DNA of 44,927 nucleotides from a phage, in sequence record PZ871095.1. One strand, given 5' to 3'. Numbering within the stretch: the stretch's first letter is position 1; every line of letters begins with the position of its first letter. The position numbers were made by a program, and so were the translations under genes. Positions 12,013-43,327 of this stretch are shown piece after piece. The notes below the pieces were generated by a model. It had not been told where the DNA came from and made no database searches. It saw nothing but the letters and a program-made list of their open reading frames with translations.

Positions 12013-12015
12013 GCC

Positions 12016-25246: not shown

Positions 25247-25309
25247 AGTATTACCCTTTTTAGTGAGGGGGCTGTATTGCCCCGACGAGTTAACTATAAT
25301 GCAACCAAC

Positions 25310-25780
25310 CTATTGGTTGCAAGTGAATTTTGCAACGTTTATTGCGTAAATTTTCGGAACCAAATCACCACACGCCCGACGAATTGCCGCGATGTTCTTC
25401 TCGCAATCTTCAATGATGACCAGTTCCGACACGTCTGCGTAGCAGACCATTTTGAATACAGCGCACGCCTTAAACTCTGGCGGCGGGGTGTCGTCCAGCA
25501 TGTGGCGCATAAACAACCGGCCGTTCGGGAAGACCTCCAATTGCTCGGCGGTGGTGTCCCAACATTCTCGCTGCCGGTTGGTCAGATACGCGATCTCGAA
25601 GCCTTGCTCTTTATACATGCGCAGTAGCGGCAGCATATCCATGTTAAGGTCTTCGCGGACATGCGCCTTGTGCCACTTCGCCCAAAAGGTGGATTTAGTT
25701 TTTATGCCCGGCACCAAGTCGGCACGCGCATCACTTGAACCGTTAATAACGCCATCCAAATCGCAAATCAGTAATTTCAT
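25310..25780 (-). CDS. HAD-superfamily hydrolase (putative nucleotidase/phosphatase)
   Basis: 156 aa; N-terminal LLICDLDGVI matches HAD motif I (DxDG); ATG start. Confidence 0.65.
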   Translation of the reverse strand: MKLLICDLDGVINGSSDARADLVPGIKTKSTFWAKWHKAHVREDLNMDMLPLLRMYKEQGFEIAYLTNRQRECWDTTAEQLEVFPNGRLFMRHMLDDTPPPEFKACAVFKMVCYADVSELVIIEDCEKNIAAIRRACGDLVPKIYAINVAKFTCNQ

Positions 25781-26001
25781 TTTAAACTCTCAATAAGGGT
25801 CTGTCGGGCGCTTCGCGCAGTAAAGGAGTTGCACACGAAATGGCAACGCTGAGTCATGACAAGCCAACCGGTGAGGTCAAGGCCCATGATGCGTCCGGGG
25901 CGAGACGCGCGCACCACATGATTGCGCCGCGGGTCAATGCAGAAGTCTTTTTGCATATGGTCTACAACCGCGGGGTCGCGGTCAACGATTAAGATATTCA
26001 A
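25777..26001 (-). CDS. small hypothetical protein
   Basis: 74-aa ORF filling the gap between the HAD and Dam genes; TTG start preceded by AAGGAG; stop overlaps the HAD ATG (ATGA). Confidence 0.35.
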   Translation of the reverse strand: MNILIVDRDPAVVDHMQKDFCIDPRRNHVVRASRPGRIMGLDLTGWLVMTQRCHFVCNSFTARSARQTLIESLK

Positions 26002-26467
26002 GGAGTTCTCCTTCGCTCATTATTTCAATTTGTGCGCTGCCGATGGGTGGCGCTTCGTCAAAGATTATCAGTTGCTGGCACTTATTATTGCTAGGCCCGA
26101 CTTCACCGGTTACAGCGTGTATAAATCTAATCCGCCAGTCCAGAAGAATTATCAGGTTTGCAGTCTTCCGGGCCAGCTTCGCCCACTTCGTCGACGTGTC
26201 CTGATTCAGTAGCATGACAGTACGGCGTCCGTGCGCTGCGCACTCGACCCACGGCAGCGGATCGGAATACGGCGGATTGCACCACTTCCACCCTTTCAAC
26301 TCGGACCAGTCCACATCAAGCGCGCTGTGTTCCGCCGTGAAGTAACGCGGGAGCAGGTGGTTTGCATCGCTTGCCGCCATATCGTAACGGAATCGGTATT
26401 TCCGACGAAGCGGTTTAAATAAAGCTGGCGGCGTGCGCCAGCCATCCTTCTGCTCACTCTTCTGCAT
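25982..26467 (-). CDS. DNA N6-adenine methyltransferase (phage Dam-type)
   Basis: 161 aa with catalytic NPPY motif (WCNPPYS) typical of N6-adenine methyltransferases; ATG start. Confidence 0.8.
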   Translation of the reverse strand: MQKSEQKDGWRTPPALFKPLRRKYRFRYDMAASDANHLLPRYFTAEHSALDVDWSELKGWKWCNPPYSDPLPWVECAAHGRRTVMLLNQDTSTKWAKLARKTANLIILLDWRIRFIHAVTGEVGPSNNKCQQLIIFDEAPPIGSAQIEIMSEGELLEYLNR

Positions 26468-26912
26468 GATCTGGATCTATCGCATACAAGGCAATTTTCT
26501 CACCACTGTTTAGAACGCGTTGCAGGCGCTTTGCTCCATCGTCGCTGAGCCGTCGGCAATCGGAGTAGTAGCTACCGTTTTTGCGCCACGCCATAAGCAC
26601 CAGGTCTTTACGGTCGATCTTCGTTGTGCGACCTTTTGGGCGCACGTACTCCTCGGCACGTTTGCAATGCTCGCGCAAACCTTCGGCAGTGATGCGGTTT
26701 AGTGCAACGCTGGTTGTGTATCCGGTGCGCTGCATAATCCCCATCAATTCGAAAAGCAGTTCGAAGCGCTCCTCTAATTCCTTGCGCATCTTCTCCTCGC
26801 CTTCATAGCTTGCCAGGTAGGTATCCGCCAGCGCGTTCGCCCGTTCGGCTTGCTCTCGGGCTTCGAGGCATTGCGCGGCCCAGTAATTTTTCTCTTCTTG
26901 TAAAATTTTCAT
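26454..26912 (-). CDS. hypothetical protein
   Basis: 152 aa, ATG start, overlaps the Dam start; charged helical N-terminus, basic C-terminal half. Confidence 0.55.
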   Translation of the reverse strand: MKILQEEKNYWAAQCLEAREQAERANALADTYLASYEGEEKMRKELEERFELLFELMGIMQRTGYTTSVALNRITAEGLREHCKRAEEYVRPKGRTTKIDRKDLVLMAWRKNGSYYSDCRRLSDDGAKRLQRVLNSGEKIALYAIDPDHAEE

Positions 26913-26959
26913 CGTGTTGTCTCCAGGTATTAAAAAGGGCGTCCAAACCGGACACCCTC

Positions 26960-26988
26960 AATATAATGCAACCAATCTAATTATGCAA
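26960..26988 (-). promoter_or_regulatory. putative sigma70-type promoter (TTGCAT-N17-TATATT) with TTGGTTGCA motif
   Basis: Minus-strand reading aTTGGTTGCATaattagaTTGGTTGCATTATATTgaggg, about 45 nt upstream of the ATG at 26912. Confidence 0.4.
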
Positions 26989-26993
26989 CCAAT

Positions 26994-27317
26994 TTACGAA
27001 TAAAAATTTGGGTCGCGTGCAACGTCTACCAGATACAGATTGCTGATTCGGTTGCCGTAGTGGCCTGGTGTTCGCTGGCGGCACACAACGGCGTAGCCTG
27101 GAGGAATTGTATTGCCGGTCGCGATAATCCACGCCACGCGTGCGCCCGATAGCGTTTTGCCGTTGCATTCGATGCGCGTGCCGCCATCGGCAGTGTTGAG
27201 GTTGCCAATTTTGCAGCCGGTGGACTTCAGACGAATGACGCCGGTTTTGCTGTCGTAGGAGAATAACTGGTTAGTCATTGCAACCGAAAAATCAATGGCT
27301 TCGAATGTAGTATTCAT
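26994..27317 (-). CDS. HNH-like endonuclease-family protein (possibly degenerate)
   Basis: 107 aa; C-terminal PGHYGNRISNLYLVDVARDPN resembles the HNH core (H...N...N), but the first conserved His region looks substituted. Confidence 0.4.
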   Translation of the reverse strand: MNTTFEAIDFSVAMTNQLFSYDSKTGVIRLKSTGCKIGNLNTADGGTRIECNGKTLSGARVAWIIATGNTIPPGYAVVCRQRTPGHYGNRISNLYLVDVARDPNFYS

Positions 27318-28009
27318 TTTAAATTTTCCTCATTGACCGCTATCGCGAAGCCGCGCGGGGTGAGCGACCGGATTAATTTTGTGCGGGCTGATTTGCCTCC
27401 GAGGCGACTATACTGCTTCGAGTACCCTTTTTCAACGAAAACAGGTTTCTTCTCTGGCATACGGAAGCCGTTACCGGTCCATAAGCAGGTCAGCTTCGGA
27501 TATGAATCGCGGGCGTTGATGTATTCCGGGAAGAGCGGGTGTACGTCATCCTCCGGCAGATATCCCCCATACTCCCACGGGTCGAATGAGTGGTCCGGCT
27601 TACGCCACTGGGTGGAAAGCACACTGCGCGGATTCTCAATCATATATGGCACTTCGAAGAAGTCACCCAGGTAAGCGGCGATCTTCGCGGTGCGCACCGC
27701 CTTAAGCTGAAAGGCTGGGTCTTTTGCACGCTTGCGCGGGAAAGCTGGCGCACCGCTCACTGCCAGATCCGTGCACGGAGGAAACGCATAGATGATATCT
27801 GGCGTACCGAAATCGCCATTCATCGCACGGTCTACAAAGTCCAGATCGATAAACTCATTGCGATAGCGGATTCCGCGACCATAAATCCGGTAGTCAAGGT
27901 AAGACCCGTGATCGGCTTCGGAGTAGTTGAAGCAATAACACTTATGCCCCATCTCGGCAGCACGCTCAATCATCAAACCGCTGCCGTCAAACAATGACCA
28001 GATTATCAT
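27314..28009 (-). CDS. compact C5-cytosine methyltransferase-like protein
   Basis: 231 aa with motif I-like LFDGSG, motif IV-like FPPCTDLAVSG (catalytic PC) and motif VI-like ENP; far shorter than typical C5 methyltransferases; coupled to neighbours by ATGA overlaps. Confidence 0.55.
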   Translation of the reverse strand: MIIWSLFDGSGLMIERAAEMGHKCYCFNYSEADHGSYLDYRIYGRGIRYRNEFIDLDFVDRAMNGDFGTPDIIYAFPPCTDLAVSGAPAFPRKRAKDPAFQLKAVRTAKIAAYLGDFFEVPYMIENPRSVLSTQWRKPDHSFDPWEYGGYLPEDDVHPLFPEYINARDSYPKLTCLWTGNGFRMPEKKPVFVEKGYSKQYSRLGGKSARTKLIRSLTPRGFAIAVNEENLK

Positions 28010-29430
28010 TTGCGCGCCTTTTTAGCTTTCATGTATTCCATCAAGTCGTCCTGTATATCTCGCTTACTGTCGCGACGCTCGGCGACCAATTCGTCCAATG
28101 TCCCGCGAGCCTGGATAATGTAGACGAATACCGGTCGAGGGTGTCCGGCCTGCATCTGGCGAACCGGCCCGATACGTTCAACGATCTGCGAAAAGTGCTC
28201 AAAGTTCCAGGTATCGGAGAATATTGCCAGGTGATGTCCGCCGTCCTGCAAGTTAAGGCCGTGGCCCGCCGATGCCGGGTGTGCAAACATGATGGGGATC
28301 TCGCCCCTGTTCCACGCTTCCATATCCTTATTGCCCTGCTTACCTTTACCCAACGCAACGCCGTGCGGAAATTTCTTCTTAAGACGTGCCAGGTCATGCT
28401 TATACTGATACGCAACGAGCAACGGCGCGCCGTTCAACTCCTCCACGATACTTTCCAGTGCGTCCAGCTTCGCGTCGTGAATCTTCACCCACTCGTCGGT
28501 CCGTTCGCCGTCTTCGTCCACCTTATACACAGCGCCGGAAGCAAGCTGAAGGCACTTAATTGTCTTCGATGCCGCGTTCGCCGCTTCCACTGTTCCGCTT
28601 TCCAGTTCGGCAAATAGCTCGCTTTCAAACTGGTCGTAGATCTTGCGGGCTTTCTTCGGCAGGTCCACAACAACCGGCGTATAGATTGGCTTGTCGCATC
28701 CGAAGTATTCAGCCGCGTCAACGGTTAGTGATACGTCAGACAGGCGTTGTTGTATTTCTTTCTCGGAGTTCTTTAGCGGGGCGTGCTGCATCGTGAAGCT
28801 GCCAGGCTTAACAGGCTTGCTAATGAACCAGCGATCGGTGAATGCCTTATAGCTACTGCCGAGGCGTTCGCCACCGTCGACAAACCACGTCTGACCCCAT
28901 AAGTCTTTTAGCCCGTTTGGCGCTGGTGTGCCGGTAAGGTTAATCCAGCGCTTGACGTGTTTATGTGCAATCGCTGCCAGTGCGCGGGCGCGCTTGCTCC
29001 CCTGCTTGCTACGATAGCCTTTCAGCTTAGTCGATTCATCGGCAACAACGACCGTAAAGGGCCACGCATCGCCGTAATAGTCGACCAGCCACTCAACCAC
29101 ATCGTAGTTAACACAAACCACGTTAGCGTCGCTCTCAAGCGCCGCAATACGGTCCTTCTCCGGCCCGGTGCCGTCTACGACCAGCAGGGATGAGAATCGC
29201 CATTTCTCCTGTTCCGGGGGCCATGTACCCGACGCAACACGCAGCGGGGCCAGCACCAGTACGCGGTCCTCATGATGGGACAGGACGCCAGTCTGGAACA
29301 TTTTATTCAGCGCCCACATTGTCGCGCCGGTTTTACCCGACCCCATTGTCGCCCAGATATTACATCGCTTATGCTTGAGGATGAACGCGGTTATCAACTT
29401 CTGATATTCGCGGCGTCGGAATCGTGCCAT
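28006..29430 (-). CDS. SNF2/DEAD-like superfamily 2 helicase
   Basis: Walker A GSGKTG, DExx-like VVADEST and conserved helicase C-terminal motifs; start placed at ATG 29430 (MARFRRREYQ) rather than the upstream alternative at 29520. Confidence 0.85.
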   Translation of the reverse strand: MARFRRREYQKLITAFILKHKRCNIWATMGSGKTGATMWALNKMFQTGVLSHHEDRVLVLAPLRVASGTWPPEQEKWRFSSLLVVDGTGPEKDRIAALESDANVVCVNYDVVEWLVDYYGDAWPFTVVVADESTKLKGYRSKQGSKRARALAAIAHKHVKRWINLTGTPAPNGLKDLWGQTWFVDGGERLGSSYKAFTDRWFISKPVKPGSFTMQHAPLKNSEKEIQQRLSDVSLTVDAAEYFGCDKPIYTPVVVDLPKKARKIYDQFESELFAELESGTVEAANAASKTIKCLQLASGAVYKVDEDGERTDEWVKIHDAKLDALESIVEELNGAPLLVAYQYKHDLARLKKKFPHGVALGKGKQGNKDMEAWNRGEIPIMFAHPASAGHGLNLQDGGHHLAIFSDTWNFEHFSQIVERIGPVRQMQAGHPRPVFVYIIQARGTLDELVAERRDSKRDIQDDLMEYMKAKKARK

Positions 29431-29434
29431 TTCT

Positions 29435-29653
29435 TTATTCCGCCTTTTTCCAGACTTCGGTTTCACTGTTCCAGTTCCTTTTTGTAGCGTCGTAGTTGGT
29501 GGCGTGTCCGATGTGCACACCGGTAGCCCGGAAGCTCTTAAATTTTTGCCAGCACACCGTCAACGGCAGCGGATCATTCATGCCCGCGATAAACCATACG
29601 CGATCGCCCGGTTTACATTCGCCCAGCTTGGTTAGTCGGTAATGTTCTTTCAT
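29435..29653 (-). CDS. small hypothetical protein
   Basis: 72 aa from ATG 29653 preceded by GGGAGA; stop lies 5 nt upstream of the helicase start. Confidence 0.4.
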   Translation of the reverse strand: MKEHYRLTKLGECKPGDRVWFIAGMNDPLPLTVCWQKFKSFRATGVHIGHATNYDATKRNWNSETEVWKKAE

Positions 29654-29665
29654 CGTCATGTCTCC

Positions 29666-29689
29666 CAAAAATGGCGGGACAAGCCCGCC
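29666..29689 (-). terminator. rho-independent terminator on the minus strand (GGCGGG-cttgt-CCCGCC + TTTTT)
   Basis: Stem-loop followed by a T-run when read on the minus strand, directly after the zinc-ribbon gene; the stem includes a GCGGGACA copy. Confidence 0.6.
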
Positions 29690-29696
29690 GTATTAA

Positions 29697-29870
29697 TTAT
29701 TTTTGTTTTGCACGGTAGCGGCGCTGCCGTTCGCGCTCTTTCTTATTGCGGCACGATTTGCACTCTGCCCGGTGCCCGTCTGGACTGCGCGCAGTCTTAC
29801 CGGTGTATTTGTGGAACTGGGATAGCGGCTTGACACAGCCGCAATTACTACAACGTTTTTCTTCAATCAT
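29697..29870 (-). CDS. small zinc-ribbon protein
   Basis: 57 aa from ATG 29870; two CxxC pairs (CSNCGC ... CKSC) and a basic C-terminus. Confidence 0.5.
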   Translation of the reverse strand: MIEEKRCSNCGCVKPLSQFHKYTGKTARSPDGHRAECKSCRNKKERERQRRYRAKQK

Positions 29871-29910
29871 CTCTAAAATCCTCGATATGGCTAACCGGCA
29901 CACTATACCG

Positions 29911-30189
29911 CTATGCGACCAATTCAGCAACCAATAAATCGCAGTCGGATATGTTGTCGATAACGCGAACGTCAGCACCGCGGCGGGCCATCCGTTCATG
30001 TTCGCGTACCTGGTGCGGCTTCGGTTTTCCACCGGGGCGCTTCACTTCGACGAACACTATTTTGCCGTTGATGATAATAATCAGGTCGGGCGCACCTGCG
30101 CGCCCCTCCCATGCCAGTTTTCGGCAGAATCCGCCGACCTCTTTCACCCGTTTCATCAGGTGACTTTGAATCTTGCCTTCTGGTGTCAT
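29911..30189 (-). CDS. VRR-NUC domain nuclease
   Basis: 92 aa with PDLIII...VFVEVK arrangement (PD-(D/E)xK core) typical of VRR-NUC proteins. Confidence 0.7.
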   Translation of the reverse strand: MTPEGKIQSHLMKRVKEVGGFCRKLAWEGRAGAPDLIIIINGKIVFVEVKRPGGKPKPHQVREHERMARRGADVRVIDNISDCDLLVAELVA

Positions 30190-30377
30190 TTGGTCTGCAA
30201 CTCCACGTTACGCAGACGAAGGTCTACCGGTATGTCCGATCGCCCGGTTAGCGCCAGCGCCAGGTTTTCAGGCGTGACGAGTGCCGTAATGGTCTTGCCA
30301 CGTTCCAGTCTAATGACGATTCGAATCTCGTCATCGTCCGCCGCGCCAGCGCGCATAATGCTCATTTCTGCTTTCAT
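30186..30377 (-). CDS. small hypothetical protein
   Basis: 63 aa, ATG with AGGAAG ribosome-binding site, between the polymerase and VRR-NUC genes. Confidence 0.45.
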   Translation of the reverse strand: MKAEMSIMRAGAADDDEIRIVIRLERGKTITALVTPENLALALTGRSDIPVDLRLRNVELQTK

Positions 30378-30381
30378 AATC

Positions 30382-32673
30382 TTACTTCCTGTACCTGTAC
30401 ATAATGTCGCCTTCTGCGGCGAGTGGGAAGCCTTTCGCCCAAACTGGCAGGTCGCACATCAGCGCGCATAGCTCCTCGGTCGTGTAGTCGTCAGTATCCG
30501 GCACTTCTGTGATCAATTCGTCGTGTACTGACAGGACGATTTCATAGCCCGCGGCTTCAACGCCGGGCATGGACCATGCGAGAATATCGCGACACAACGC
30601 CTGTACGATGTTCTCCGTAAGTTTGCCGCCGTAGGTATACTGGAATCCCCACTGGCGCGTCGTCTGATTCTCGCCCTGATATTTAATGTGTGTGCTGGTG
30701 CGCTTCTTGCCGGTGTCTTCATCAATCTCGGTAGTGACAGACAGCGCGATGCCGGGGTAGCTCATGATGCGCCCCGACGGCAACTCAATTTTCAACCACC
30801 ACCCCGCGGCGTCCGGGTCGTCGCGCTCCTCGTCGAAGGTTGGGTCGTGCTTCGCCTTCGTGCGCACAATCTTGAGCGCTTTTCTACCGTCCGGGCGAAC
30901 GTTCGCGCCAGCCCAGTATGCTTTACCCGGATTGCGGATTGCACACAACACCGCGTCCTCAAGCTCGGCCCAAAAGGCTACCGTCTTCGGGTGAGCCTCA
31001 CGCCACATGCGTTTGATCGCGTCACAGGTAAGCCATACGTTTTTCGGCAGTATGTATGTTGGGCGCTCGTCCTTCTTGCCCGGCTTCGGCGGGCGCTTCG
31101 CTTCGTTAATGCGAGCGTACTCATAACCACGTTTCGCCGCCGCCCAAATGTGGTCCGGGAACGTGCCTTTCATCACGTCCGCCATAGTGTAAAGGTCGAG
31201 TCCCAGGTTTTTAGCGAACTGCAAGAACGCCGCGACGCCGCCACCATAGCCCAGTCCCAATTCGCACGCCTTACCAATCTGGCGTAAGTCCTTGCGGTTG
31301 GCTTTAATGTAATCCGGGTCAAGGCCGAACATCTTACCGGCAGTCTCACAATAGATATCGCGACCGGCCTTAAACACCATTAGCGCGGTTTTCTCGCCAG
31401 CAATCCAGGCAAGGCCGCGCCCTTCCACGTTGGAGTAGTCCGCTACGACAAACTTCTTGCCCTTCGCCGGAATAATGCACCCGCGAACGGTCGAGGCCGT
31501 TAGCTTCGATATGTCATACGCCCAGTGTGCGGTCCCGCGTAACAGGGAGTTGATGCCGTTGGTGAGCATGTGCGACCGGACCCAAAACGAGACGTCGCTT
31601 TCACCCTCGCGGCGTTTAATCTTCCCTTCGTGGTCGTCGCTGTACTCGCCACGCGCCAGGTTTTGAGGTTGAAAGCCTTTACCGGCCCAGCGTAGCGTGC
31701 GCTTTGCCCCACCATACTGAAGACAACCACGGCGGCGACCATCGGCAGACAGGCCATTGACGAGCGGATTGTATTTAGTAGATGCGGTTGATGACGCACC
31801 GAGGCGCATTTCGATCAGCGCTTTGCCCTCGTCCGGGAAGTCCGGGTCTTCCAGTAGGTCGTTTAGCGTGGATTTCTGCGCGTTGTGGATTGTGAACGCC
31901 GGGGCGATATCACGCAGGATTGGCAGGAAGTCATTGCCTGTCAGTTTACCGCCAAATCGCTCCCAGGCTTCCTCCTTCAATTCTTCCTTATGCGCCTGCA
32001 CCGCTTTGATCGCGGCGTTCGCCAGGTCAACGTCCACATAGAAGCCGCGGTCGTTGATCAACTGGTCGATAAGCAGGATTTCATCTTCCTTCGGAGTATT
32101 ACCCCAGTCCGGTATGCGCCAGTAGACCTCACGCATCGCGATAATATCCAGCGCGGCATATCGCAGAAATTTGGCCCATTCTTCAGGGTGAGTCTCGCGA
32201 GTGTAGCGGCGGATTTTGTAAGTCTTAGGGGTCGGCTTACAGAATCGTTTGATCAGCGCCTTGCCTGCCTTATCCTTCGCGTGCTCTGCGTCAACGCCCA
32301 GCACCTGGCACTGCATATCGAGGCTACCGGGCAGCGCGTGGCGAAAGGCCATAATCATGGTGTCTTCGATCTGGCTTACCGGCAGGTCAATACCCCACTT
32401 CTCGCGAATAACCAGGCGGTCAAACAGTAGGCCGTTAGCCATCACGATTTTTGCTTTCTTGCGGGATACATGGCGGAGCGCTTTGCGCAGTTCACGCGGC
32501 ATTGTGGGGGATTCAGTGCAATCCCATGTCTGCACGCGGCCCTCGTCGATGGCGTATGTGCAAATCATAATCTCGGTGGTTGGGTGCTCTGCGTAGGCGT
32601 ACGCCCCTACTTTCTTCAGGTCCACCCCGCTAAATGTCTCGGTATCGAGAAACAGGCGTTCGAAGTCTTTCAT
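30382..32673 (-). CDS. DNA polymerase I-like (family A) with N-terminal 3'-5' exonuclease region
   Basis: 763 aa; exonuclease-like N-terminus (LFLDTETFSG), motif A-like ADYSNVEGR and motif C SVHDELITEV characteristic of family A polymerases. Confidence 0.9.
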   Translation of the reverse strand: MKDFERLFLDTETFSGVDLKKVGAYAYAEHPTTEIMICTYAIDEGRVQTWDCTESPTMPRELRKALRHVSRKKAKIVMANGLLFDRLVIREKWGIDLPVSQIEDTMIMAFRHALPGSLDMQCQVLGVDAEHAKDKAGKALIKRFCKPTPKTYKIRRYTRETHPEEWAKFLRYAALDIIAMREVYWRIPDWGNTPKEDEILLIDQLINDRGFYVDVDLANAAIKAVQAHKEELKEEAWERFGGKLTGNDFLPILRDIAPAFTIHNAQKSTLNDLLEDPDFPDEGKALIEMRLGASSTASTKYNPLVNGLSADGRRRGCLQYGGAKRTLRWAGKGFQPQNLARGEYSDDHEGKIKRREGESDVSFWVRSHMLTNGINSLLRGTAHWAYDISKLTASTVRGCIIPAKGKKFVVADYSNVEGRGLAWIAGEKTALMVFKAGRDIYCETAGKMFGLDPDYIKANRKDLRQIGKACELGLGYGGGVAAFLQFAKNLGLDLYTMADVMKGTFPDHIWAAAKRGYEYARINEAKRPPKPGKKDERPTYILPKNVWLTCDAIKRMWREAHPKTVAFWAELEDAVLCAIRNPGKAYWAGANVRPDGRKALKIVRTKAKHDPTFDEERDDPDAAGWWLKIELPSGRIMSYPGIALSVTTEIDEDTGKKRTSTHIKYQGENQTTRQWGFQYTYGGKLTENIVQALCRDILAWSMPGVEAAGYEIVLSVHDELITEVPDTDDYTTEELCALMCDLPVWAKGFPLAAEGDIMYRYRK

Positions 32674-32840
32674 TGCTTTATCCTCACTACGGCGTCAGCG
32701 CTGCCGATCATGGAGAAGATGCCGTCGGTCAGGGCAATCTCTTCGCCATTGTTGCGAATCTCGGCAACTGTGAAATATTCCCCCAGTAGCTTGGACCATA
32801 CTTGCATTCCGACTTTTACTTCGCTGGCTTTAATACGCAT
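32670..32840 (-). CDS. small hypothetical protein
   Basis: 56-aa ORF (MRIKASEVKVGMQVW...) whose TGA overlaps the polymerase ATG (ATGA); not in the supplied track because it is under 60 aa. Confidence 0.4.
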   Translation of the reverse strand: MRIKASEVKVGMQVWSKLLGEYFTVAEIRNNGEEIALTDGIFSMIGSADAVVRIKQ

Positions 32841-32855
32841 TTTTCATTGTCCTAT

Positions 32856-32880
32856 TAAAAAGCCCGCATTAAGCGGGCTT
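32856..32880 (-). terminator. rho-independent terminator on the minus strand (AGCCCGC-ttaat-GCGGGCT + TTTTT)
   Basis: Stem-loop plus T-run in minus-strand orientation immediately downstream of the SSB-like gene. Confidence 0.65.
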
Positions 32881-32898
32881 GAATAGTGGGATTTGCCC

Positions 32899-33683
32899 TT
32901 AACGGCGGCGACGTTTACGTGGTGCTTCGTCTTCGTCGTCTTCGTCCTCATCTTCGTCATCGCGGGACTTGCGGCGTTTGCGAGGTTTTTCATCTTCCTC
33001 ATCATCGTCGTCATCGCGGCGCTTGGACTTTTTGGACTTGCGCGGCTTGTCATCTTCATCATCGTCATCACGACGTTTTGACTTCTTAGCCTTGCGCGGT
33101 GCTTCGTCTTCGTCGTCGTTGTCCAGGTCTTCATCGGAGCAAGAAGACCCGCCACCGCCGAAGGCTTCACCGTCATCACGGAAGCGTAAACCCAGCAAGC
33201 CAGCACCGAGTCCCTTGCCGTTGGTGTTGTTCCACGCCCAAATATCAAGTGACACGTTGCAATAACAACCGGAGTAGATCTCCTGGCCTTCAATCTCGTC
33301 GCCGTCGATGGTCAGACCTTGTTCAGTCTGCTTCTCGCCGAGTGACGTTTGAATGATTGGCTGTTTGAACGATTTAGCGTTGATGTACAACATGCCTTCG
33401 AATTCTTCGGTTACTTCGTCGCGCTCGTCACCGTCGCGAACTGCGCATTCCTTAGAATCCTGGGCGTAGTGGCGGTCCATCCACTTATCGGCATTCTTCT
33501 CGGATTTCAGCTTATCGGTGAGCACTGCGCGCGCTGCCGCTTCCACTTTGTCCACCTGCGGATCTTCTTTATCCAGAAGAATCACGGCACGGTATGCCGG
33601 TTTTTGTCCATCCTGTTTAGGGGTATCACGTTCCCAAATTTTCAGGAAGCATACGCGCACATTTTTCAGGTTGACTTTAGCCA
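32899..33683 (-). CDS. SSB-like protein (DUF2815 family) with repetitive charged C-terminal tail
   Basis: N-terminus MAKVNLKNVRV typical of DUF2815; start placed at ATG 33683 after GAGGA; C-terminus carries three repeats of an acidic run followed by PRK(A/S)KKSKRR. Confidence 0.7.
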
Positions 33684-33995
33684 TTTTCCAATTCCTCATT
33701 TTCACATGTATCGGGGTTATTGTGAGCCACCCCGTCCGGCTTGGTTGCTAATCTACTTGGTTGCGCCTGAGCGGTCAAGCATTTTCATTAAAAAGATTTC
33801 TGGTAACGTAGTCGGTAGCGTTCTCGATCCAGCTTAATGGCGGGCGGTCGATATTCTTCGCCACCCAATCGGCGGCAGCTTCGCTATAACCGTCATCCAG
33901 CCAGCGGGTCGGATGCCGAATCATCCACGCCATGCACACAATGCAGGATAAAGCCCAGCGCGCCGATAACAAACATCAATAATATTGCGAATACT

Positions 33996-35426
33996 TTATT
34001 CATTGCTTAAGTCCTCGTCAGTAGCTACAGACCACGCAGGGCGCGGGTCATCGATGGGTGCTAATACCGGTTTAGCTGGTGCGCGCGTGATTTTATCACA
34101 CAATTTCGCCCACACTTTCGGCTTCTCGTCCTTCAATACCTTCTCGGCGTCGGTAGGACTGAGTAATGTTTCTTTGTACATAACATCGCGCTTGATCCGG
34201 GCCTTCGTGAAGATTTCAATCACTTCGCTTTCGTCCGCCCACTTGCGGATCCCTTCCTTACCGGCAACCATTTTGAGGCCCAGAGATTCGCCATCACCCG
34301 CCATTACGGCCTTGAATACTGCGGACTCGATAGCCTTGATGTGCTGGCGCATTGCGTCCAGACCTTCATATGCCTTGCGCAGTTCTGCTGCGGTCATAGC
34401 GCCGGGGGCCGCTTCTTTCTTACCACGCTTCGCACGTCGTGCCGCTTTCCGGGCTTCGCGGGCCATATTGCGGTCATGATTGGCGCATTCTTCCTCTGTC
34501 GCAATACTCACGTCGTCGCCCAGGTCTTCGTCTGTTGCCGTTGGTGGGGTCATCGTGTCGATTGCGGCCTTAGCGCGGGCGCTACACTGATCCGCAAATC
34601 TGCACCACTGACACGCATCAACGCTCGGTCGGAAGTCGGCACGGGTGAGTCCCTTTTTGCCGCGGGCGTACGCTTCCAGGGCGGCGATAGCACGCTTGGA
34701 CGCAAACTTCGCGAATATCTCCAGGGCTTCTACCGAAATATCCCACTCCGACGCCCCGCCGCAATACGGCTGGAAGATAACCAGGCGCACGGTCGTGATG
34801 TCGTACATGGATTGCAGCTTGCGCAGCAGGCCGAGCGCATACAGCATAAGCTGTTTGTTTTCTTTCGCCTCGACCTTATGCCGCCCCGTCTTCAGGTCGC
34901 CAACAATCAGCATGTACGTCCCGTCGGTCTTTTTCATGACCATGACCATATCGGCAGTACCGAACGTTTTAATCCTGTTGCCGTCGATCTCGTAGCCTGA
35001 GTGAAGGACGCGGGTCAGATCGGCGCGCATCTCAAGCTGGACAAACTCCGCCACTTCGAGGAGTGGTCGCCAGTGGTCGATGTACGCGTCGCACTGTTTC
35101 ACCATGTCGTCGTTGACCAGTACGCCGCCTTTCGGTGCTTTCGGGTGCGCCTTTACTGGCCCCTTGCCTTCGTTCTCGACGTAACACCCTTTATACGTCT
35201 TTGCGGATATCAGCTTCTCACCGGCGATAATGCGGTTTAGCACCACCTCAGATACGGTGTGCATACTCGTACCGTTAATCGCGGCTTGCCCGGATTCGTT
35301 CGGGATATCTTTTTCCACCACCAGGGCGGCGGGACACCCCATCCATTTTTTAGCACCGGATGGGCCGAGTAATGAGTGTTCCGTATTGCTACCGGATTGC
35401 GTTTTACGTTTTGGTTTAATCGCCAT
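33996..35426 (-). CDS. PD-(D/E)xK Cas4-like nuclease (DUF2800 family)
   Basis: 476 aa; N-terminal SLLGPSGAKKWMGCPA signature and CQWCRFADQC cysteine cluster typical of DUF2800/Cas4-like phage nucleases; adjacent to the DUF2815 gene. Confidence 0.75.
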   Translation of the reverse strand: MAIKPKRKTQSGSNTEHSLLGPSGAKKWMGCPAALVVEKDIPNESGQAAINGTSMHTVSEVVLNRIIAGEKLISAKTYKGCYVENEGKGPVKAHPKAPKGGVLVNDDMVKQCDAYIDHWRPLLEVAEFVQLEMRADLTRVLHSGYEIDGNRIKTFGTADMVMVMKKTDGTYMLIVGDLKTGRHKVEAKENKQLMLYALGLLRKLQSMYDITTVRLVIFQPYCGGASEWDISVEALEIFAKFASKRAIAALEAYARGKKGLTRADFRPSVDACQWCRFADQCSARAKAAIDTMTPPTATDEDLGDDVSIATEEECANHDRNMAREARKAARRAKRGKKEAAPGAMTAAELRKAYEGLDAMRQHIKAIESAVFKAVMAGDGESLGLKMVAGKEGIRKWADESEVIEIFTKARIKRDVMYKETLLSPTDAEKVLKDEKPKVWAKLCDKITRAPAKPVLAPIDDPRPAWSVATDEDLSNE

Positions 35427-35614
35427 TATTCCACCCTTGAAAACTGAGCAATGTAATAATCATGTTCAACATTGGCCCGCTTAGCGGCATTGTTCATGGT
35501 AGCCGCCAGTCCTCGGGCTTGCATCCAGCAGCAATTCCAGTTTTGATTCATAACAATTTCCGGTTGCTCGTCGCCGGTAATACGGCAACGAAATAAAACA
35601 AAGAATATAGCCAT
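35426..35614 (-). CDS. small hypothetical protein
   Basis: 62-aa ORF with ATG start, upstream of the nuclease gene in the same operon. Confidence 0.4.
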   Translation of the reverse strand: MAIFFVLFRCRITGDEQPEIVMNQNWNCCWMQARGLAATMNNAAKRANVEHDYYIAQFSRVE

Positions 35615-35866
35615 TTATTTTGTCTCCCAGCGGTCAATTGTTTTTGCTTCGGATGCAACTGCGAAGCGAACATATTCCAGATTGGAATCCGCCCAAATAT
35701 AAAAGTCGGGGTTAGTAAAGGTGGTGCGCTTAATTTGCGCGGGGGTAGTGCGGCGTTTATCAATTACGGCAACGCGTGACTGAAAGCTGCCGATGCGCTC
35801 GAATAGCCAATAGTACGGGCGCTGGTCGCGGGAATCCACCGCCTCGATTAGCGTGAAGCGTGCCAT
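35615..35866 (-). CDS. hypothetical protein
   Basis: 83 aa, ATG with GAGGA ribosome-binding site. Confidence 0.5.
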   Translation of the reverse strand: MARFTLIEAVDSRDQRPYYWLFERIGSFQSRVAVIDKRRTTPAQIKRTTFTNPDFYIWADSNLEYVRFAVASEAKTIDRWETK

Positions 35867-35914
35867 TGTCTCGTCCTCTAAAAATAGGCCCGCAGATTAG
35901 CGGGCCGGATAATA

Positions 35915-36427
35915 TTAGTCTTCCAGTTCGAAATAGGTTTCTACAATTTCTTTCAGATCTTTGTGGAAGTCTTCTACGTCGTCATCTTCCAGTTTTGCGA
36001 TTGATTTGATCTCGAACGCTTCCAGCAGGTCGTCAAATTCGTCGTTGGCATCGTCGTCATCACCACCGGCGATAATCGCGGCATACTGTTTGATTTCGTC
36101 GCGCATCTCTGCCAGCGGGTCGGCATCTTTCTTGCCTTTGCCTTTCGCCGGAGCTTTTTTGGTTTTCGCCGGTTTTTCGTCTTCGGCTTCTTCATCGTCG
36201 TCATCTTCTACGACTTCTTTTTTGGCCTTACCTTTAGCCGGTGCTTTTTTGGTTTTCGCCGGTGCTTCGTCTTCAGCGTCGTCATCTTCTACGACTTCTT
36301 TTTTCGCCTTAGATGGCTTTTTATCTTCCTGCTTACCAACGGCAGCGCCAACGGTTTCATAATGCTTAGCGATGGTTTCCAGTGCTACTACGCCGCGTGT
36401 AATCAGGTTTACGATTTGTTCAAACAT
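35915..36427 (-). CDS. acidic repeat-containing early protein
   Basis: 170 aa; first gene after the leftward promoter; about 50 D/E residues, internal imperfect tandem repeat (KKEVVEDDD..EDE.PAKTKKAPAKGK twice), very acidic C-terminus. Confidence 0.6.
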   Translation of the reverse strand: MFEQIVNLITRGVVALETIAKHYETVGAAVGKQEDKKPSKAKKEVVEDDDAEDEAPAKTKKAPAKGKAKKEVVEDDDDEEAEDEKPAKTKKAPAKGKGKKDADPLAEMRDEIKQYAAIIAGGDDDDANDEFDDLLEAFEIKSIAKLEDDDVEDFHKDLKEIVETYFELED

Positions 36428-36625
36428 GTTTTATATCTCCGATTGGTTAAGTTTAGGTGTCGACCATTAACCTCGTCGGTGGCCTTAACATATTGCCAGG
36501 TTACGCGTTCTCCCTTTCGGGTAGTGGACCTGGTTATATAATCACGGTTGGGAATCCTGACACTTCGATCCGGCCCCTGCGTTGCCCCTCTCCAGTTTGC
36601 GTCCTGCATCCTGTCGACGAGGTGC

Positions 36626-36654
36626 ATATTAGATTGGTTGCAGAAGGGAGTCAA
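36626..36654 (-). promoter_or_regulatory. putative leftward early promoter (TTGACT-N17-TAATAT)
   Basis: Minus-strand reading TTGACTcccttctgcaaccaatcTAATAT; near-consensus sigma70 hexamers with 17-nt spacer containing GCAACCAA; heads the leftward gene block. Confidence 0.5.
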
Positions 36655-36663
36655 CAACTAATT

Positions 36664-36698
36664 TAAAAAAAAGCGCCGAAGCAAAATGCGACGGCGCT
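36664..36698 (-). terminator. rho-independent terminator on the minus strand (AGCGCCG stem, T9 run)
   Basis: Minus-strand AGCGCCG-tcgcattttgctt-CGGCGCT followed by TTTTTTTTT, just upstream of the early leftward promoter in the divergent control region. Confidence 0.6.
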
Positions 36699-36827
36699 AA
36701 CCAATAAGAGACAATGAGACGGGGGTATTATTACACGCGTGCGCGCCCGTTTCAATATCCAAAGGATTTGACACCGTGCCGTTTTGGGTGTAGTTTCGTT
36801 GGTCATTAACCAACTGAGGGCAGAGCA

Positions 36828-37157
36828 ATGAATGTAAACGACGCAATCGAAATGTTAACGAAGACTGTTTGCAGTGAGACAAGCCGGTCATGGGCATACA
36901 CCGATGCCGTGGGGGCTGTGTTATTTGAAATCGAACGACTGCGGCTTACCGAAAAAGAATTGCGCGCCAGGCTGGAACTACTCAACGGTACAGCAGCAAG
37001 CAAGCTGCAAAAGCACAATGAAGAAATGGAAGAATACAAAAAGCAGGTTATCCGTTTGCGCGACGAAGGGAAATCATGGGCGATGATTGCCGAGTTGACC
37101 GGAATTAATCAGAGCACAGTGCGCTCCTGGGTACGCAATAATAAAACTTCTAAGTAA
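36828..37157 (+). CDS. putative HTH DNA-binding regulator
   Basis: 109 aa; C-terminal KSWAMIAELTGINQSTVRSWV resembles a helix-turn-helix; first rightward gene of the divergent control region; GAGGG ribosome-binding site. Confidence 0.6.
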   Translation: MNVNDAIEMLTKTVCSETSRSWAYTDAVGAVLFEIERLRLTEKELRARLELLNGTAASKLQKHNEEMEEYKKQVIRLRDEGKSWAMIAELTGINQSTVRSWVRNNKTSK

Positions 37158-37167: not shown

Positions 37168-39432
37168 ATGAGCTTAATTAAATTCGCTGTAACACGACCC
37201 GCTAAAAAAGGCGAAAAAGCCAGGGCGGAAAACTTCCAGATGACCACCGATGAGTTTTTCGAATTTATCAATGACGCGAAAGAAATATCCTCGGTGCATA
37301 TCAACAAGACGGAAGATAAAGCCGAGTATGCGCGCCGCAAGCGTAAGGCCGATGGCATCGTGGCGTATACCAGTGACGGATTGCGTCGTAAGACCAGTGC
37401 GGTGGACCGCTCGATCCTGTTCTTTGATATTGACCGCACCGACACCCGCACCCTGCGCCGCTGCCGTAAGGCGTTCATCGACGCGGGTCTGGAACACGTA
37501 TTTCACACCACCACCGGCGACCGCCACCCGCTGAAGGGTGGCACGCGTTGCGCCCGTTTCCTGGTGCTCACTGACAAGCCTGTACCGGCTGAAGACCTGG
37601 GCCGCGTCCAGTATGCACTATTACACCAACTGGGCCTGTCAGATGTGGACTTCGACGATTGCACGAAAGACACAAACCGCCTTATGTACCTGCCTCACCA
37701 GCAATCGGTTGTTAAGTGTCACTACGGCAAACGCGCCCGCGTCCGTCGTCTGCTTCGCCTGGCTGATAAGCTGGGAGTGGAGAAAGAGGAAGTACGCCGC
37801 GAACTAACCCAGGGCGATGACGGCGTGGCGGACGGTATTCTGGATTGGTGCTTCCAGGCAGGATTCGAACCGCTGTCGTCCGGTCGTGGTTATGAAGTGC
37901 CGTGCCCTAACGAACACCTGCACAGCGGCGAAGGGTCCACCGCTATCATGGTTAAGGATGGCGAGATCCGTTTCAAGTGTATGCACACCGGCAACGAGTG
38001 TTGCTCGGAACTGAACAGACACCAGCACCTGGCGCTACGTCTTATCGGGATCCCGGACCACCTGAACGTCGAACCGCACAACATGTCACGTAAGCAAATC
38101 GCCGCCATCCTCCCAGGACTGGACGACGAGGAAGTGGAATCGTGCTATGAACATATCGTTGATGCGGTCGGAGACGGCGACGAGTACGGCGGATGTACTG
38201 ACGCTGACCTGGATAACGAACCGGTCGCACTGTTCAGTAAGCACGACCCGATCATAGAAGGCCTGGTCAACTTCAAATCGACCTGGTATATGGCTGGCGA
38301 GTCGAACATCGGTAAATCGTTCTACGTGCTGGGTCAAATGGGTGCGGTTGCCGCGGGGATTCCGTTCGGGGGTGCGAAGGTCGTCCAGTCCCATTGCTTC
38401 TATTTCGACGCGGAAGGTGGCGAAGCCTCCAACCAGCGTAAGGAAGCATTGCAGATCAAATATGAGCACGACCTCGACAAGCTGCACATTATCGATCTGC
38501 AATCACGCGGCTGGGATATCACCAGCAAATCCGGCTTGCGTGAAGTTATCAGCTTTATCAACCGCACCGCTAACGGCGAACCGGTTGGTCTGGTGGCGTT
38601 CGACTCCCTCAACCAGACTGTTGCGTTGCGGTCCGCCGATGCTAAACCGTTCGACGAGAACAACGCCAGCGATATGGGTGAAGTGGTCAAAGCGCTGAAG
38701 GCCATTGCGGAAAATACCGGCGGCAGTGCGGGCGTCATCCACCACCCGGCGAAAGGCGCAAACGGCAGCAGATCCCCCCGCGGGTCCGGCGCACTGCATG
38801 GCGCTGTCGATTCCGCGTTCTTCCTGGAGCAACCGGACGACAACCAGCCAGGTCAATTGAACCTGTATCACGAAAAGGCACGTAACGGCATCAAGCAAGC
38901 GCCGCGCGGCTTCGTCCTGCTCAAGTGCAAGGTTAAGGTGGATCTCCGCAAGTCCGAGGCGTTCGAAGCCCACCAGTCCACCAGCACCGGGCCGGACTTC
39001 GGTGATGTAGTTGCAGGTTGGGACGTCAAGCCGATTGCATCCACGCCACGCGACGAGACTCTTTACCTCGTACCGGTCGCCCTAGCACCGTTCGCCATCG
39101 AACAGGCGAAGGCCTCGGGCAAGGCCGCAGTTAAGGAAGAGAACTCCGCAGGACCGCGCAACGAAAAAGAGAAAGTGCTTTATGCGGCACTGGAAAAACT
39201 GATGGAAGATAACCCGGACCATACCGGATTCAGTAAATCGGCAATTGTCCGCCAGGCTGGACTGGCGAAAGGTGGCACATCGACGAAGGCAATCGACGAT
39301 ATGGTCGAGCGCGGAGTGTTAGGTTTTTATACAGACCCGCACACCAGGGCCATCTATGGGTCGTCTAATATCGTCATAAAAACGAAGATACCCATCACGC
39401 TTTCGGCGACCGATGACGACCTGAAAGATTAA
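37168..39432 (+). CDS. DNA primase/helicase (primase-like N-terminus plus P-loop ATPase)
   Basis: 754 aa; Walker A GESNIGKS and Walker B-like LVAFDSLNQ in the C-terminal half; Cys/His cluster in the middle; replication-module context. Confidence 0.75.
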   Translation: MSLIKFAVTRPAKKGEKARAENFQMTTDEFFEFINDAKEISSVHINKTEDKAEYARRKRKADGIVAYTSDGLRRKTSAVDRSILFFDIDRTDTRTLRRCRKAFIDAGLEHVFHTTTGDRHPLKGGTRCARFLVLTDKPVPAEDLGRVQYALLHQLGLSDVDFDDCTKDTNRLMYLPHQQSVVKCHYGKRARVRRLLRLADKLGVEKEEVRRELTQGDDGVADGILDWCFQAGFEPLSSGRGYEVPCPNEHLHSGEGSTAIMVKDGEIRFKCMHTGNECCSELNRHQHLALRLIGIPDHLNVEPHNMSRKQIAAILPGLDDEEVESCYEHIVDAVGDGDEYGGCTDADLDNEPVALFSKHDPIIEGLVNFKSTWYMAGESNIGKSFYVLGQMGAVAAGIPFGGAKVVQSHCFYFDAEGGEASNQRKEALQIKYEHDLDKLHIIDLQSRGWDITSKSGLREVISFINRTANGEPVGLVAFDSLNQTVALRSADAKPFDENNASDMGEVVKALKAIAENTGGSAGVIHHPAKGANGSRSPRGSGALHGAVDSAFFLEQPDDNQPGQLNLYHEKARNGIKQAPRGFVLLKCKVKVDLRKSEAFEAHQSTSTGPDFGDVVAGWDVKPIASTPRDETLYLVPVALAPFAIEQAKASGKAAVKEENSAGPRNEKEKVLYAALEKLMEDNPDHTGFSKSAIVRQAGLAKGGTSTKAIDDMVERGVLGFYTDPHTRAIYGSSNIVIKTKIPITLSATDDDLKD

Positions 39433-39507
39433 ATTTTGCGCGCGTTGGTTGCCGATATGGGAATTCCCATATCGCTAAAAGATTAAATTTTGCGCGCATT
39501 GGTTGCC
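39424..39507. repeat. two 30-bp direct repeats flanking a perfect 20-bp palindrome
   Basis: AAAGATTAAATTTTGCGCGC(G/A)TTGGTTGCC at 39424-39453 and 39478-39507; palindrome GATATGGGAATTCCCATATC at 39454-39473; first repeat includes the primase stop codon. Confidence 0.8.
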
Positions 39508-39591
39508 ATTTTGGGTGTTTTTATCATGTCGTATTGGTTGCCGTGTTGTGTAGCTATAATGAATAGTTATGCAATAAAACTGCATAAAGTA

Positions 39592-39697
39592 AGCGGGACA
39601 GAAAGCGGGACAAACAAGGGGCGGGACAAAGCGGGACAGCACCCCCGTCCCGCCCCGGATGGCGCGGCCCGGAGAGGAGCGGGACAGGCGGGACAAA
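39592..39697. repeat. cluster of GCGGGACA octamer repeats (about 7 copies), second locus
   Basis: aagcgggacagaaagcgggacaaacaaggggcgggacaaagcgggacagc...gagcgggacaggcgggacaa; highly similar to 11901-12012. Confidence 0.85.
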
Positions 39698-39699
39698 CC

Positions 39700-39749
39700 C
39701 CAGTCTTTCAGACTAGACGGGGGTCAATGGCCCCCCTCGTCTGAGACTG
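39700..39749 (+). promoter_or_regulatory. conserved 49-nt bulged hairpin element (copy 2)
   Basis: Same sequence as 12016-12064 except one loop base (tcaatgg versus tcaacgg). Confidence 0.5.
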
Positions 39750-39909
39750 CATAAAATCCGGGGATTGCAAAATACACGGCAGCATGATGCGAAGTGCGGT
39801 CGTTGACGAACTAGGCAACCAATGCGAGTTGTATTATGCGGAGTGAAAAATGCGGTTTGCAGTCACAGCGGATAGCGATCAACTTTTTCATGCGCGTGAT
39901 TAATATTGG

Positions 39910-39938
39910 TTGCACACCCCCAGGCGTCCTGCTATATT
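39910..39938 (+). promoter_or_regulatory. putative sigma70-type promoter (TTGCAC-N17-TATATT) flanked by two TATTGGTTGCACACC repeats
   Basis: -35 and -10 hexamers with 17-nt spacer about 30 nt upstream of the ATG at 39967; the -35 lies within one TTGGTTGCA copy and the second copy follows the -10. Confidence 0.4.
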
Positions 39939-39966
39939 GGTTGCACACCAACATGAGGACTGAACA

Positions 39967-40293
39967 ATGAAAGCGATTATCTGGAATTACGCAATGGCAA
40001 TGGCTGCGGCACAAGAAGCGGAGGAGTTCGTCGGTGAGGGAGCGGAAGCGGTCGAAAGACTATCGGCAGCGTGGTCCGTTGTTCGCGTCACGCAGCAGGC
40101 CATCGCCTGCATGCTGGAGCGCCGCTTCGACACGATGGCAGAGATCCAGCCACTGGCGAACGCTATCCAGGACTACGCGCTGGCATTTGCCCGAGAGCGC
40201 CTGGCGTATCGCTTCGGTATCGGCGAGACGGCAGTGACAAACGTCGCCCGGATTAAAGCCCAGCGCGAACTATTCGCCCAGCTTGCGAAATAA
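39967..40293 (+). CDS. hypothetical protein
   Basis: 108 aa, ATG with GAGGA ribosome-binding site. Confidence 0.55.
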   Translation: MKAIIWNYAMAMAAAQEAEEFVGEGAEAVERLSAAWSVVRVTQQAIACMLERRFDTMAEIQPLANAIQDYALAFARERLAYRFGIGETAVTNVARIKAQRELFAQLAK

Positions 40294-40302
40294 GGGGCCA
40301 AA

Positions 40303-40572
40303 ATGAGCCGCAGACGAGCGAAACAGCTTTCGTGGCATATTCCACTGCATTGCATACGAATATGGGCTAAGAATGCGAATGAGGGCGATTCTGTGTACTG
40401 GTGCTATCGCGATGACGTTAAGCCACTGACGCAGACTCGTTACTTGCACCAGTTCGCAGCACAACACGATTTCAGGGTGCGGACTTCCTTGCAATCAATG
40501 GGGATCCGTATTACATTACGCCGGAAGCCCGCCATTGAGAGGGTAGGCAAACACTGGAGACGGAGCAAATGA
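40303..40572 (+). CDS. hypothetical basic protein
   Basis: 89 aa, ATG with AAGGGG ribosome-binding site; Arg/Lys-rich. Confidence 0.5.
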   Translation: MSRRRAKQLSWHIPLHCIRIWAKNANEGDSVYWCYRDDVKPLTQTRYLHQFAAQHDFRVRTSLQSMGIRITLRRKPAIERVGKHWRRSK

Positions 40573-43276: not shown

Positions 43277-43327
43277 GCTTGACTCGCAACCAACACAGGG
43301 GCCATACTGCAACCAATCAACTGGAGG

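Follow-up and report, generated by a model that had tools for sequence, protein, structure and literature searches.

The window analysed here, i.e., the whole 44,927-bp stretch of sequence record PZ871095.1, is the complete genome of a Dhillonvirus (an HK578/SO-1-like lytic Escherichia coli siphophage), in which a module of short repeated boxes, typically GCGGGACA, is found in two distant non-coding gaps. The present analysis addresses the anatomy and conservation of this module and its candidate role as a paired origin of replication. The right copy (39581-39754, plus strand) begins 149 nt past the stop codon of the gene encoding the 754-amino acid (aa) primase-helicase (37168-39432, plus strand), and the left copy (11896-12069, plus strand) is located between the tail chaperone G/GT gene, which ends at approximately 11758, and the tape-measure gene, which starts at 12133. 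The two copies are direct repeats of 174 nt at a spacing of 27,685 nt, reported as one family by the repeat finder, and they share 87% identity in a gap-free alignment. A preceding sequence-only reading had described similar non-coding segments at 39592-39697, after the primase gene, and at 11901-12012; both are present as described, their true extent is larger, and the similarity reaches well beyond the octamer to include a hairpin of 49 nt that differs at one loop base. The repeats themselves have been noticed before, as the GenBank record of Sodalis phage SO-1 annotates them as the repeat regions 'region A' and 'region B'.

Within the module, an AT-rich flank comes first and is followed by four direct boxes with one inverted box, then by a centre rich in GC, by two further boxes, and lastly by the hairpin. 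In the right copy the AT-rich flank (39555-39592, 21% G+C) is a candidate unwinding element; the gcataaa that had been regarded as shared flanking sequence is indeed present there, not as mere flank but as part of the inverted repeat TTATGCA (39567-39573)-N7-TGCATAA (39581-39587). The first box set (39593-39654, plus strand) has direct copies of GCGGGACA at 39593, 39605, 39621, and 39631 (spacings of 12, 16, and 10 nt), the first of these 161 nt past the primase-helicase stop, and the inverted GTCCCGC at 39647-39653. It is followed by the GC-rich centre (39655-39678, 79% G+C), of which the sequence is not the same at the two loci, and by the second box set (39679-39695, plus strand) with direct copies at 39679 and 39688. 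The imperfect right hairpin (39701-39749, plus strand) is formed by CAGTCTTTCAGACTAGACGGGGG and CCCCCCTCGTCTGAGACTG around a loop and lacks a T-run at its 3' side. The boxes of the left module (11908-12010, plus strand) comprise direct copies at 11908, 11920, 11936, and 11946, the imperfect inverted GTCCCCGCC, CGGGACA at 11995, and GCGGGACA at 12003, after which the left hairpin spans 12016-12064 on the plus strand. Directly 3' of the hairpin the right copy reads CATAAAAT, and the left copy AATAAGG. Moreover, the left module is preceded by two additional 63-nt units on the plus strand (11763-11825 and 11841-11903), each with a GCGGGAC/GTCCCG(C/T) palindrome, which is perfect in the first unit and in the second has one mismatch, together with GTCCCGCC in inverted orientation, a stretch rich in AT, and TGCATAAA. 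The window contains 18 copies of GCGGGACA on both strands, versus 2.07 expected (standard deviation 1.49), a number that was reached in 0 of 100 shuffled sequences, and 14 of these copies reside in the two non-coding gaps, i.e., 6 at 39593-39695 and 8 at 11779-12010.

Open reading frames (ORFs) at 11872-12069 and 39490-39744 overlap the modules, and several GenBank records contain 'hypothetical protein' genes annotated across them (11528-11692 and 38917-39102 in record L003, 11586-11732 in L126, and 11511-11708 in L128). These ORFs are probably spurious, because their frames differ at the two copies relative to the gap-free shared sequence, and a protein-coding reading of the modules was rejected.

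Conservation of the modules and variation of their boxes

The region 39400-40400 is approximately 80-94% identical to 159 phage records, and both copies of the module were detected in all 159 of these Dhillonvirus records, with 359 matching places overall. One record (PQ843332.1, phage P-GXEC-L2P5, 88,607 bp) contains 7 module matches at about twice the normal genome length, and is probably a dimer or concatemer assembly artefact. An alignment was constructed of 38 module copies from about 20 genomes, in which c50407, a copy from a sister lineage, was excluded from the column counts. The columns of the CGGGACA cores were invariant in 35 of 42 cases, as compared to 15 of 60 for those between boxes, and the spacers maintained their lengths; such invariant box cores with varying inter-box columns have the usual signature of protein-binding sites. 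Identity between left and right copies was 85.1% within a genome versus 82.4% between genomes. The right module of phage SM_S22 (L128) has a left-type centre, 95% left-right identity, and an upstream flank that is replaced by extra boxes, which looks like the result of gene conversion or recombination between the two loci and suggests that conversion occurs occasionally.

Within the genus the stems of the hairpin are invariant and its apical loop is variable; the invariance of the 5' stem is partly by construction, since this stem partly served as search anchor, and the 3' half lies outside the anchor and agrees among the copies found by BLAST. The hairpin folds as RNA at -27.6 kcal/mol (z-score -4.85) in the right copy and with a z-score of -3.71 in the left, and all of its variants, folded separately, are stable as RNA (-23 to -29 kcal/mol). 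In two sister lineages the apical stem is altered on both sides, from GGGGG/CCCCC to GGGAG/CTCCC in L147 and to GGGTG/CACCC in L146, and these two-sided changes support selection on the structure of the hairpin. Its stems are probably recognised by a protein, because they are conserved in sequence within the genus. The possibility that the hairpin is an intrinsic terminator was rejected, as it has no T-run and no terminator-like site was found in 39300-40100.

In sister lineages of 67-70% identity, the flanks and the TTGGTTGCC motifs are kept, together with the hairpin where the contig extends so far, and the box itself varies. At the right locus the box is GCGGGACA in L144, unchanged from the window, GTGTGGCA in L145 and L146, GTGTGCCA in L147, GGTGCCA in L148, and GGGTGCCA in L149; GGGGGAGA is also listed among the variants at the homologous position in related phages. 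More distantly, Kagunavirus St162, with a primase-helicase of 44% identity, carries an array that begins 7 nt past the stop codon and is made up of GGGG(G)AGA boxes, six of them direct, plus an inverted copy, with a hairpin, and Serratia phage Otaku (46% identity) has four TTCCGCAC boxes at the homologous position. Just upstream of the box array, GAATAGTTATGCA (39560-39573 in the window, 12718-12750 in St162, and also present in L144 and L146) is conserved from Dhillonvirus to Kagunavirus despite the differing boxes, and may be bound by some conserved factor or by a conserved part of the replicase. Otaku (L125) has three more TTCCGCA/TGCGGAA boxes in a gap between head genes (15436-15501), distant from the four boxes after its helicase gene; this second locus may have arisen independently, a suggestion that is weak, as this genome has 17 sites of the 7-mer, which makes it fairly common there.

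The left loci of the sister lineages were reached via the major tail protein, as a tape-measure query against IMG/VR gave close relatives only. L165, which is on one contig with L144, carries between its chaperone and tape-measure genes a set of CGGGAC boxes together with the hairpin. In L166 the GTGTGGCA box is present nine times, in both orientations, and is accompanied by the hairpin; L166 derives from the same sample as L146, although the two are separate contigs and their assignment to a single genome is an assumption. The left box thus equals the right box in a single-contig sister genome, and GTGTGGCA occurs at both loci in a second lineage, which argues that one lineage-specific trans factor reads both loci, and which would place the origin of the two-locus layout before the split from the L144- and L146-type sister lineages. 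Together with the invariant box cores and varying spacers, this supports the selection for a common function that the sequence-only reading had proposed, and indicates that this function acts in trans. Some relatives may be able to do without the left copy, because a more distant lineage (L167) has neither the gap nor the module at the left locus. In addition, small minus-strand genes with their own promoter of the TTGGTTGC type (a second motif of the window, see below) have been inserted after the tail chaperone gene and ahead of the left module in sister lineages (L165 4964-5712; L166 11473-11646), and gene insertion appears to have a hotspot in this gap.

The primase-helicase and its association with box arrays

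The 754-aa protein encoded upstream of the right module combines an AEP primase fold, a zinc ribbon, an AAA_25 RepA-like helicase, and a C-terminal winged helix. AAA_25, of the RepA/RecA-like family, was its only Pfam match (E-value 6e-19), rather than the SF3/AAA+ (superfamily 3) core of the SaPI (Staphylococcus aureus pathogenicity island) type, and comparison with PDB sequences gave a weak match to RepA of plasmid RSF1010; a specific match to RepB' or RepC was obtained neither by sequence nor by fold. AlphaFold (AF2) models were built on an alignment of 44 sequences. The N-terminal model displayed an AEP primase-polymerase fold at a pLDDT (predicted local distance difference test) of 84.6, with the PrimPol of cyanophage S-2L as best fold match (E-value 7.6e-6). 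The C-terminal model (residues ~666-739, pLDDT 78-90) has the order helix, strand, helix, helix, strand, strand, and its top Foldseek matches were all winged-helix domains, with probabilities up to 0.99. A protein search with the C-terminal 224 aa of the protein alone gave no matches, and the full-length query succeeded. Relative to the Guernseyvirinae, identity is 22-35% in the winged helix and 29-30% in the AEP domain, as compared to 66-71% in the helicase core and 62-70% for the phage polymerase and SNF2 helicase, from which the winged helix and the AEP domain appear to be the fastest-evolving parts of the primase-helicase.

To place the boxes in a wider context, IMG/VR was scanned blind by the box pattern alone. 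CGGGACA/TGTCCCG arrays proved to be dense in many non-Dhillonvirus contigs, up to 15 boxes per 300 bp, and 49 non-Dhillonvirus loci with arrays were collected. In 32 of these 49 a replicase gene encoding 600-750 aa ends at the array, and in each of the 32 the array is 3' of the gene, at a gap of -303 to +93 nt. The array-linked replicases comprise 23 proteins of the Prim-Pol plus AAA_25 type and 9 P-loop proteins of an uncharacterised family. The latter (L024, L025, L034, L037, L063, L070, L071, L093, and L115) are about 650 aa in length, have no Pfam domain, and end 3-10 nt before a CGGGACA array. Moreover, the primase-helicase was the only protein of the window with homologs in more than three array loci (17 loci in a direct search).

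In Rhizobium phage 16-3 the replicase p101 is 68% identical to that of L039, and the box is GCGTGACA in 16-3 versus CGGGACA in L039. The drop in identity between the two proteins falls mainly in the final ~100 residues, so that box and C-terminus appear to change together in this one clean pair. The CGGGACA arrays (GCGTGACA in 16-3) contain direct and inverted boxes, often flank a GC-rich hairpin, and follow Prim-Pol plus AAA_25 replicase genes in L039, L067, L078, L085, L110, and others, including L127, which is phage 16-3 itself (record positions 56250-56620).

Function of the modules

The evidence presented above suggests that both copies of the module are binding sites of the primase-helicase and probable origins of replication, rather than promoters. 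The reading that is favoured, with moderate confidence, is that of a two-copy iteron origin, in which the right module is the replication origin for the phage's own primase-helicase and the left module is either a second origin or a cis-acting partner comparable to the crr region of satellite phage P4. It is preferred because the position of the array matches the design of self-loading primase-helicase-initiators, of which the cognate repeats are located downstream of their own gene. We infer that the C-terminal winged helix of the 754-aa protein would read the (G/A)CGGGACA boxes, and that no separate loader would be needed, as protomers bound to the 4+1+2 boxes would themselves assemble the RepA-like helicase ring on the DNA. 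Single-stranded DNA would be provided by melting of the AT-rich flank (21% G+C), by the extruded hairpin, or by both, after which the AEP primase domain would synthesise the first primer and the phage Pol I-type polymerase would extend it. A DnaA-dependent origin was considered and rejected: DnaA boxes (TTWTNCACA) occur 55 times at one mismatch or less, versus 56.4 expected; near the left module there are only two sites, each with one mismatch, and the right module contains none.

Several observations weigh against this interpretation. The literature that was searched gave no account of origins or transcription in Dhillonvirus or of the CGGGACA motif, and assigned no function to the repeats. 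There is no obvious rationale for a second origin within the tail operon, and the centre of the module (39655-39678) has 79% G+C versus the AT-rich centre of SaPI origins, its AT-rich stretch being at the upstream flank instead. GC skew does not locate the origin, since its turning points at about 24 kb and 36-37 kb coincide with the changes in transcription direction. The winged-helix fold matches of the primase-helicase were weak (E-values 0.03-0.3). The search for specificity-determining residues returned five columns only (R90, C128, A141, T169, and T704) without clear clustering, of which one is in the winged helix (T704S), and identity to the winged helix of the window is 56% both for P0011, which goes with the box of the window, and for P0010, which goes with a different box; as a consequence, the domain that reads the box is not pinned down by these comparisons. 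The occurrence of a second, unrelated replicase family at an identical CGGGACA box sits awkwardly with a single conserved domain as reader of the box. Finally, the agreement of boxes between L146 and L166 depends on the assumed common genome noted above.

It has also been considered that the boxes bind a lineage-specific regulator of transcription, either an activator or a repressor, which co-ordinates the late operons, i.e., lysis and head functions after the right copy and tail functions after the left; this appears unlikely. Each copy is indeed upstream of a long rightward block of genes, a terminator-like hairpin follows the chaperone gene in phage Ioannina and in L166, a conserved extended -10 sequence (GCTGATACAAT) is found downstream of the left hairpin, and any shared trans factor would fit the matching boxes at both loci. 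The fixed geometry expected of such a regulator is, however, absent, as the nearest promoter-like -10 is reached 27 nt past the left hairpin (extended -10 TGATACAAT at 12088-12096, hexamer at 12091-12096) versus 184 nt past the right one (promoter-like site at 39911-39938). Moreover, box orientation is mixed in L166, and the arrays in unrelated phages go with the replicase gene and not with late genes. The activator-dependent promoter module that the sequence-only reading had put forward is disfavoured by the same observations; the paired site for looping that it named as another candidate may fit a P4 ori/crr-like arrangement.

A regulator of this kind would also lack an obvious candidate protein. 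The only recognisable sequence-specific DNA-binding protein of the window is a 109-aa helix-turn-helix (HTH) protein (gene at 36828-37157, plus strand), and no other was detected among 20 small proteins that were scanned against PHROGs. It was rejected as reader of the boxes, as its HTH (EGKSWAMIAELTGINxSTVRSWVRN) is invariant across lineages while the boxes change. A second motif of the window, TTGGTTGC(A/C), has 20 occurrences, which are nearly all intergenic, often paired or palindromic (TTGGTTGCACACCAA), and adjoin -10-like hexamers (TATATT, TATAAT); its sites are at 6173-6200, 22268, 25301-25320, 26968-26992, 29927, 33741-33765, 36634, 39445/39499/39534, 39815, 39906/39937, and 43286-43316. 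The HTH protein fits this motif better than the boxes, because the motif is equally invariant: both are unchanged in sister lineages that differ in their origin boxes. They probably constitute an operator-regulator pair for early or middle promoters.

Two further explanations are considerably less probable. It is very unlikely that the two copies serve in recombination, packaging, or partition, or that they are a duplicated, selfish repeat without a function of its own, of which the similarity is maintained by gene conversion. The slightly higher left-right identity within than between genomes and the conversion in SM_S22 would agree with such a history, as would the variability of the left locus, which has extra small genes in sister lineages and no module in L167. 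The presence of both copies in all Dhillonvirus records argues against it, and the finding of the right-locus box at the left locus in the two sampled sister lineages requires selection by a trans factor, not drift. Packaging is further contradicted by the distance of the modules from the terminase small-subunit gene (at least 5 kb), and a packaging site was rejected in its own right: a few records end near the right module (e.g., Zar3M), but they have no annotated termini at that point, and where the record starts seems to be arbitrary. Partition would be unexpected in a lytic phage, and no partition genes were found in the gene annotation of the window or in the PHROGs scan of its small proteins. 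Least probable of all is that the module acts as RNA, i.e., as a 5' leader, stabiliser, or put-like antitermination element at the head of both late units, with the hairpin as functional part. The hairpin folds well as RNA, both copies are oriented with the late genes, a TATAAT at 39555-39560 is a possible source of transcription into the right module, and a two-copy precedent is known in the putL and putR sites of phage HK022. Nevertheless, this TATAAT is not kept in sister lineages, no Rfam 15 match at gathering score was found in the whole window on either strand, and a promoter-like site is located downstream of the hairpin at the left copy. Moreover, the boxes of relatives are on both strands, as expected if double-stranded DNA is recognised, and the stem sequence is conserved beyond the needs of pairing.

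Within the reading as a two-copy iteron origin, the two modules might also be coupled by the primase-helicase, either as a bridge between them or through firing from both, in which case the opening of both late operons (lysis/head and tail) would be tied to the start of replication. This extension is rather doubtful, slightly more so than the regulator discussed above. If it were true, it would constitute replication-coupled control of late genes from a duplicated origin, and box and reader would form a fast-evolving, swappable specificity pair, with at least seven box variants (GCGGGACA, GTGTGGCA, GTGTGCCA, GGTGCCA, GGGGGAGA, TTCCGCAC, and GCGTGACA). A pair of this type would keep co-infecting relatives separate from one another's replication machinery.

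Dhillonviruses are widespread phages of E. coli, several of which are included in the BASEL reference collection, and in the literature searched no replication origin has been described for them previously; two precise candidate origin sites and a candidate initiator are now proposed. The lineage-specific boxes at one position provide natural variants for working out how an initiator reads its site. Furthermore, the CGNGACA-type arrays after Prim-Pol/RepA replicase genes in unrelated contigs and in phage 16-3 possibly represent a broad, currently unannotated class of origins, and the hypothetical-protein calls across the modules in GenBank records can be corrected.

The gene order of the window is that of its annotated relatives. 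Terminase, head, and tail genes occupy 1-24,047 on the plus strand, and the replication and modification genes are on the minus strand at 24,074-36,900. Downstream of the primase-helicase gene, small genes and the lysis cassette continue into the terminase genes. Two other kinds of repeat were observed: a 63-nt tandem duplication (98% identical) within the lateral tail fibre gene (22812-22937), and GTC/TTC triplet-rich repeats in two minus-strand genes, i.e., a gene for an SSB-like (single-stranded DNA-binding) protein and a gene of 170 aa (32915-33135 and 36121-36299), where they would encode Asp/Glu-rich acidic tails.

Relation to known replication systems

The functions that are combined in the primase-helicase and its module have partial counterparts in the IncQ plasmid RSF1010, in which RepA is the prototype of the AAA_25 helicases, hairpin ssi sites are recognised by the AEP-type primase RepB', and oriV contains iterons, a GC-rich stretch, an AT-rich stretch, and hairpins. 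Likewise, the protein of the window has an AAA_25 helicase and an AEP fold, and its module has repeats, GC-rich and AT-rich parts, and a hairpin. The plasmid differs in having these functions on three separate proteins (RepA, RepB', and RepC), in its iterons, which are 20 bp in length and present 3.5 times, versus the 8-bp boxes of the window, and in its two ssi hairpins on opposite strands, versus one hairpin per module.

A paired arrangement is known from phage P4, in which ori and crr are reportedly separate clusters of the octamer iteron TGTTCACC, kilobases apart. The P4 alpha protein, a primase-helicase-initiator, is said to bind both through its C-terminal winged helix, and one cluster is said to adjoin the alpha gene. 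The window similarly has two distant clusters of one octamer, 27.7 kb apart. However, the clusters of P4 are approximately 4.5 kb apart and structurally different, whereas the copies in the window are near-identical, and the helicase of the alpha protein is of the SF3 type.

The position of the array relative to the gene can be compared with SaPIs and other phage-inducible chromosomal islands (PICIs), of which the origins contain 6-12 short boxes in both orientations right after the gene of a self-loading helicase-initiator, with primase and helicase fused in SaPI5, and of which the Rep protein reads 5-6-nt iterons directly downstream of rep by means of a C-terminal winged helix (PMC9371898). 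The window shares with them a box array 3' of a fused primase-helicase gene with a predicted C-terminal winged helix. It differs in its helicase core, which is RepA/AAA_25 versus SF3/AAA+ in SaPIs, in its boxes (7-8 versus 5-6 nt), and in its GC-rich centre with the AT-rich part flanking. Moreover, it has a 49-nt hairpin in the module and a second complete copy 27.7 kb off, in the genome of a lytic phage and not of a satellite. The domain order of the replicase is of the type found in ORF904 of the Sulfolobus plasmid pRN1, which comprises a primase-polymerase, a helicase, and a winged helix. Downstream of the ORF904 gene a stem-loop serves as origin, and just upstream of that gene, within one operon, a small DNA-binding protein is encoded (PMC4234260); the equivalents in the window are the gene of the 109-aa HTH protein, the primase-helicase gene, and the downstream hairpin. 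Unlike the window, pRN1 has no described iterons, its helicase is of the SF3 type, and its stem-loop is about 100 nt in length and poorly conserved in sequence, versus a 49-nt hairpin with conserved stems. By analogy with these examples, the function proposed for the modules would fit a known kind of replication system, from which it would differ in helicase class, in its duplicated layout, and in the hairpin that is an integral part of each copy.

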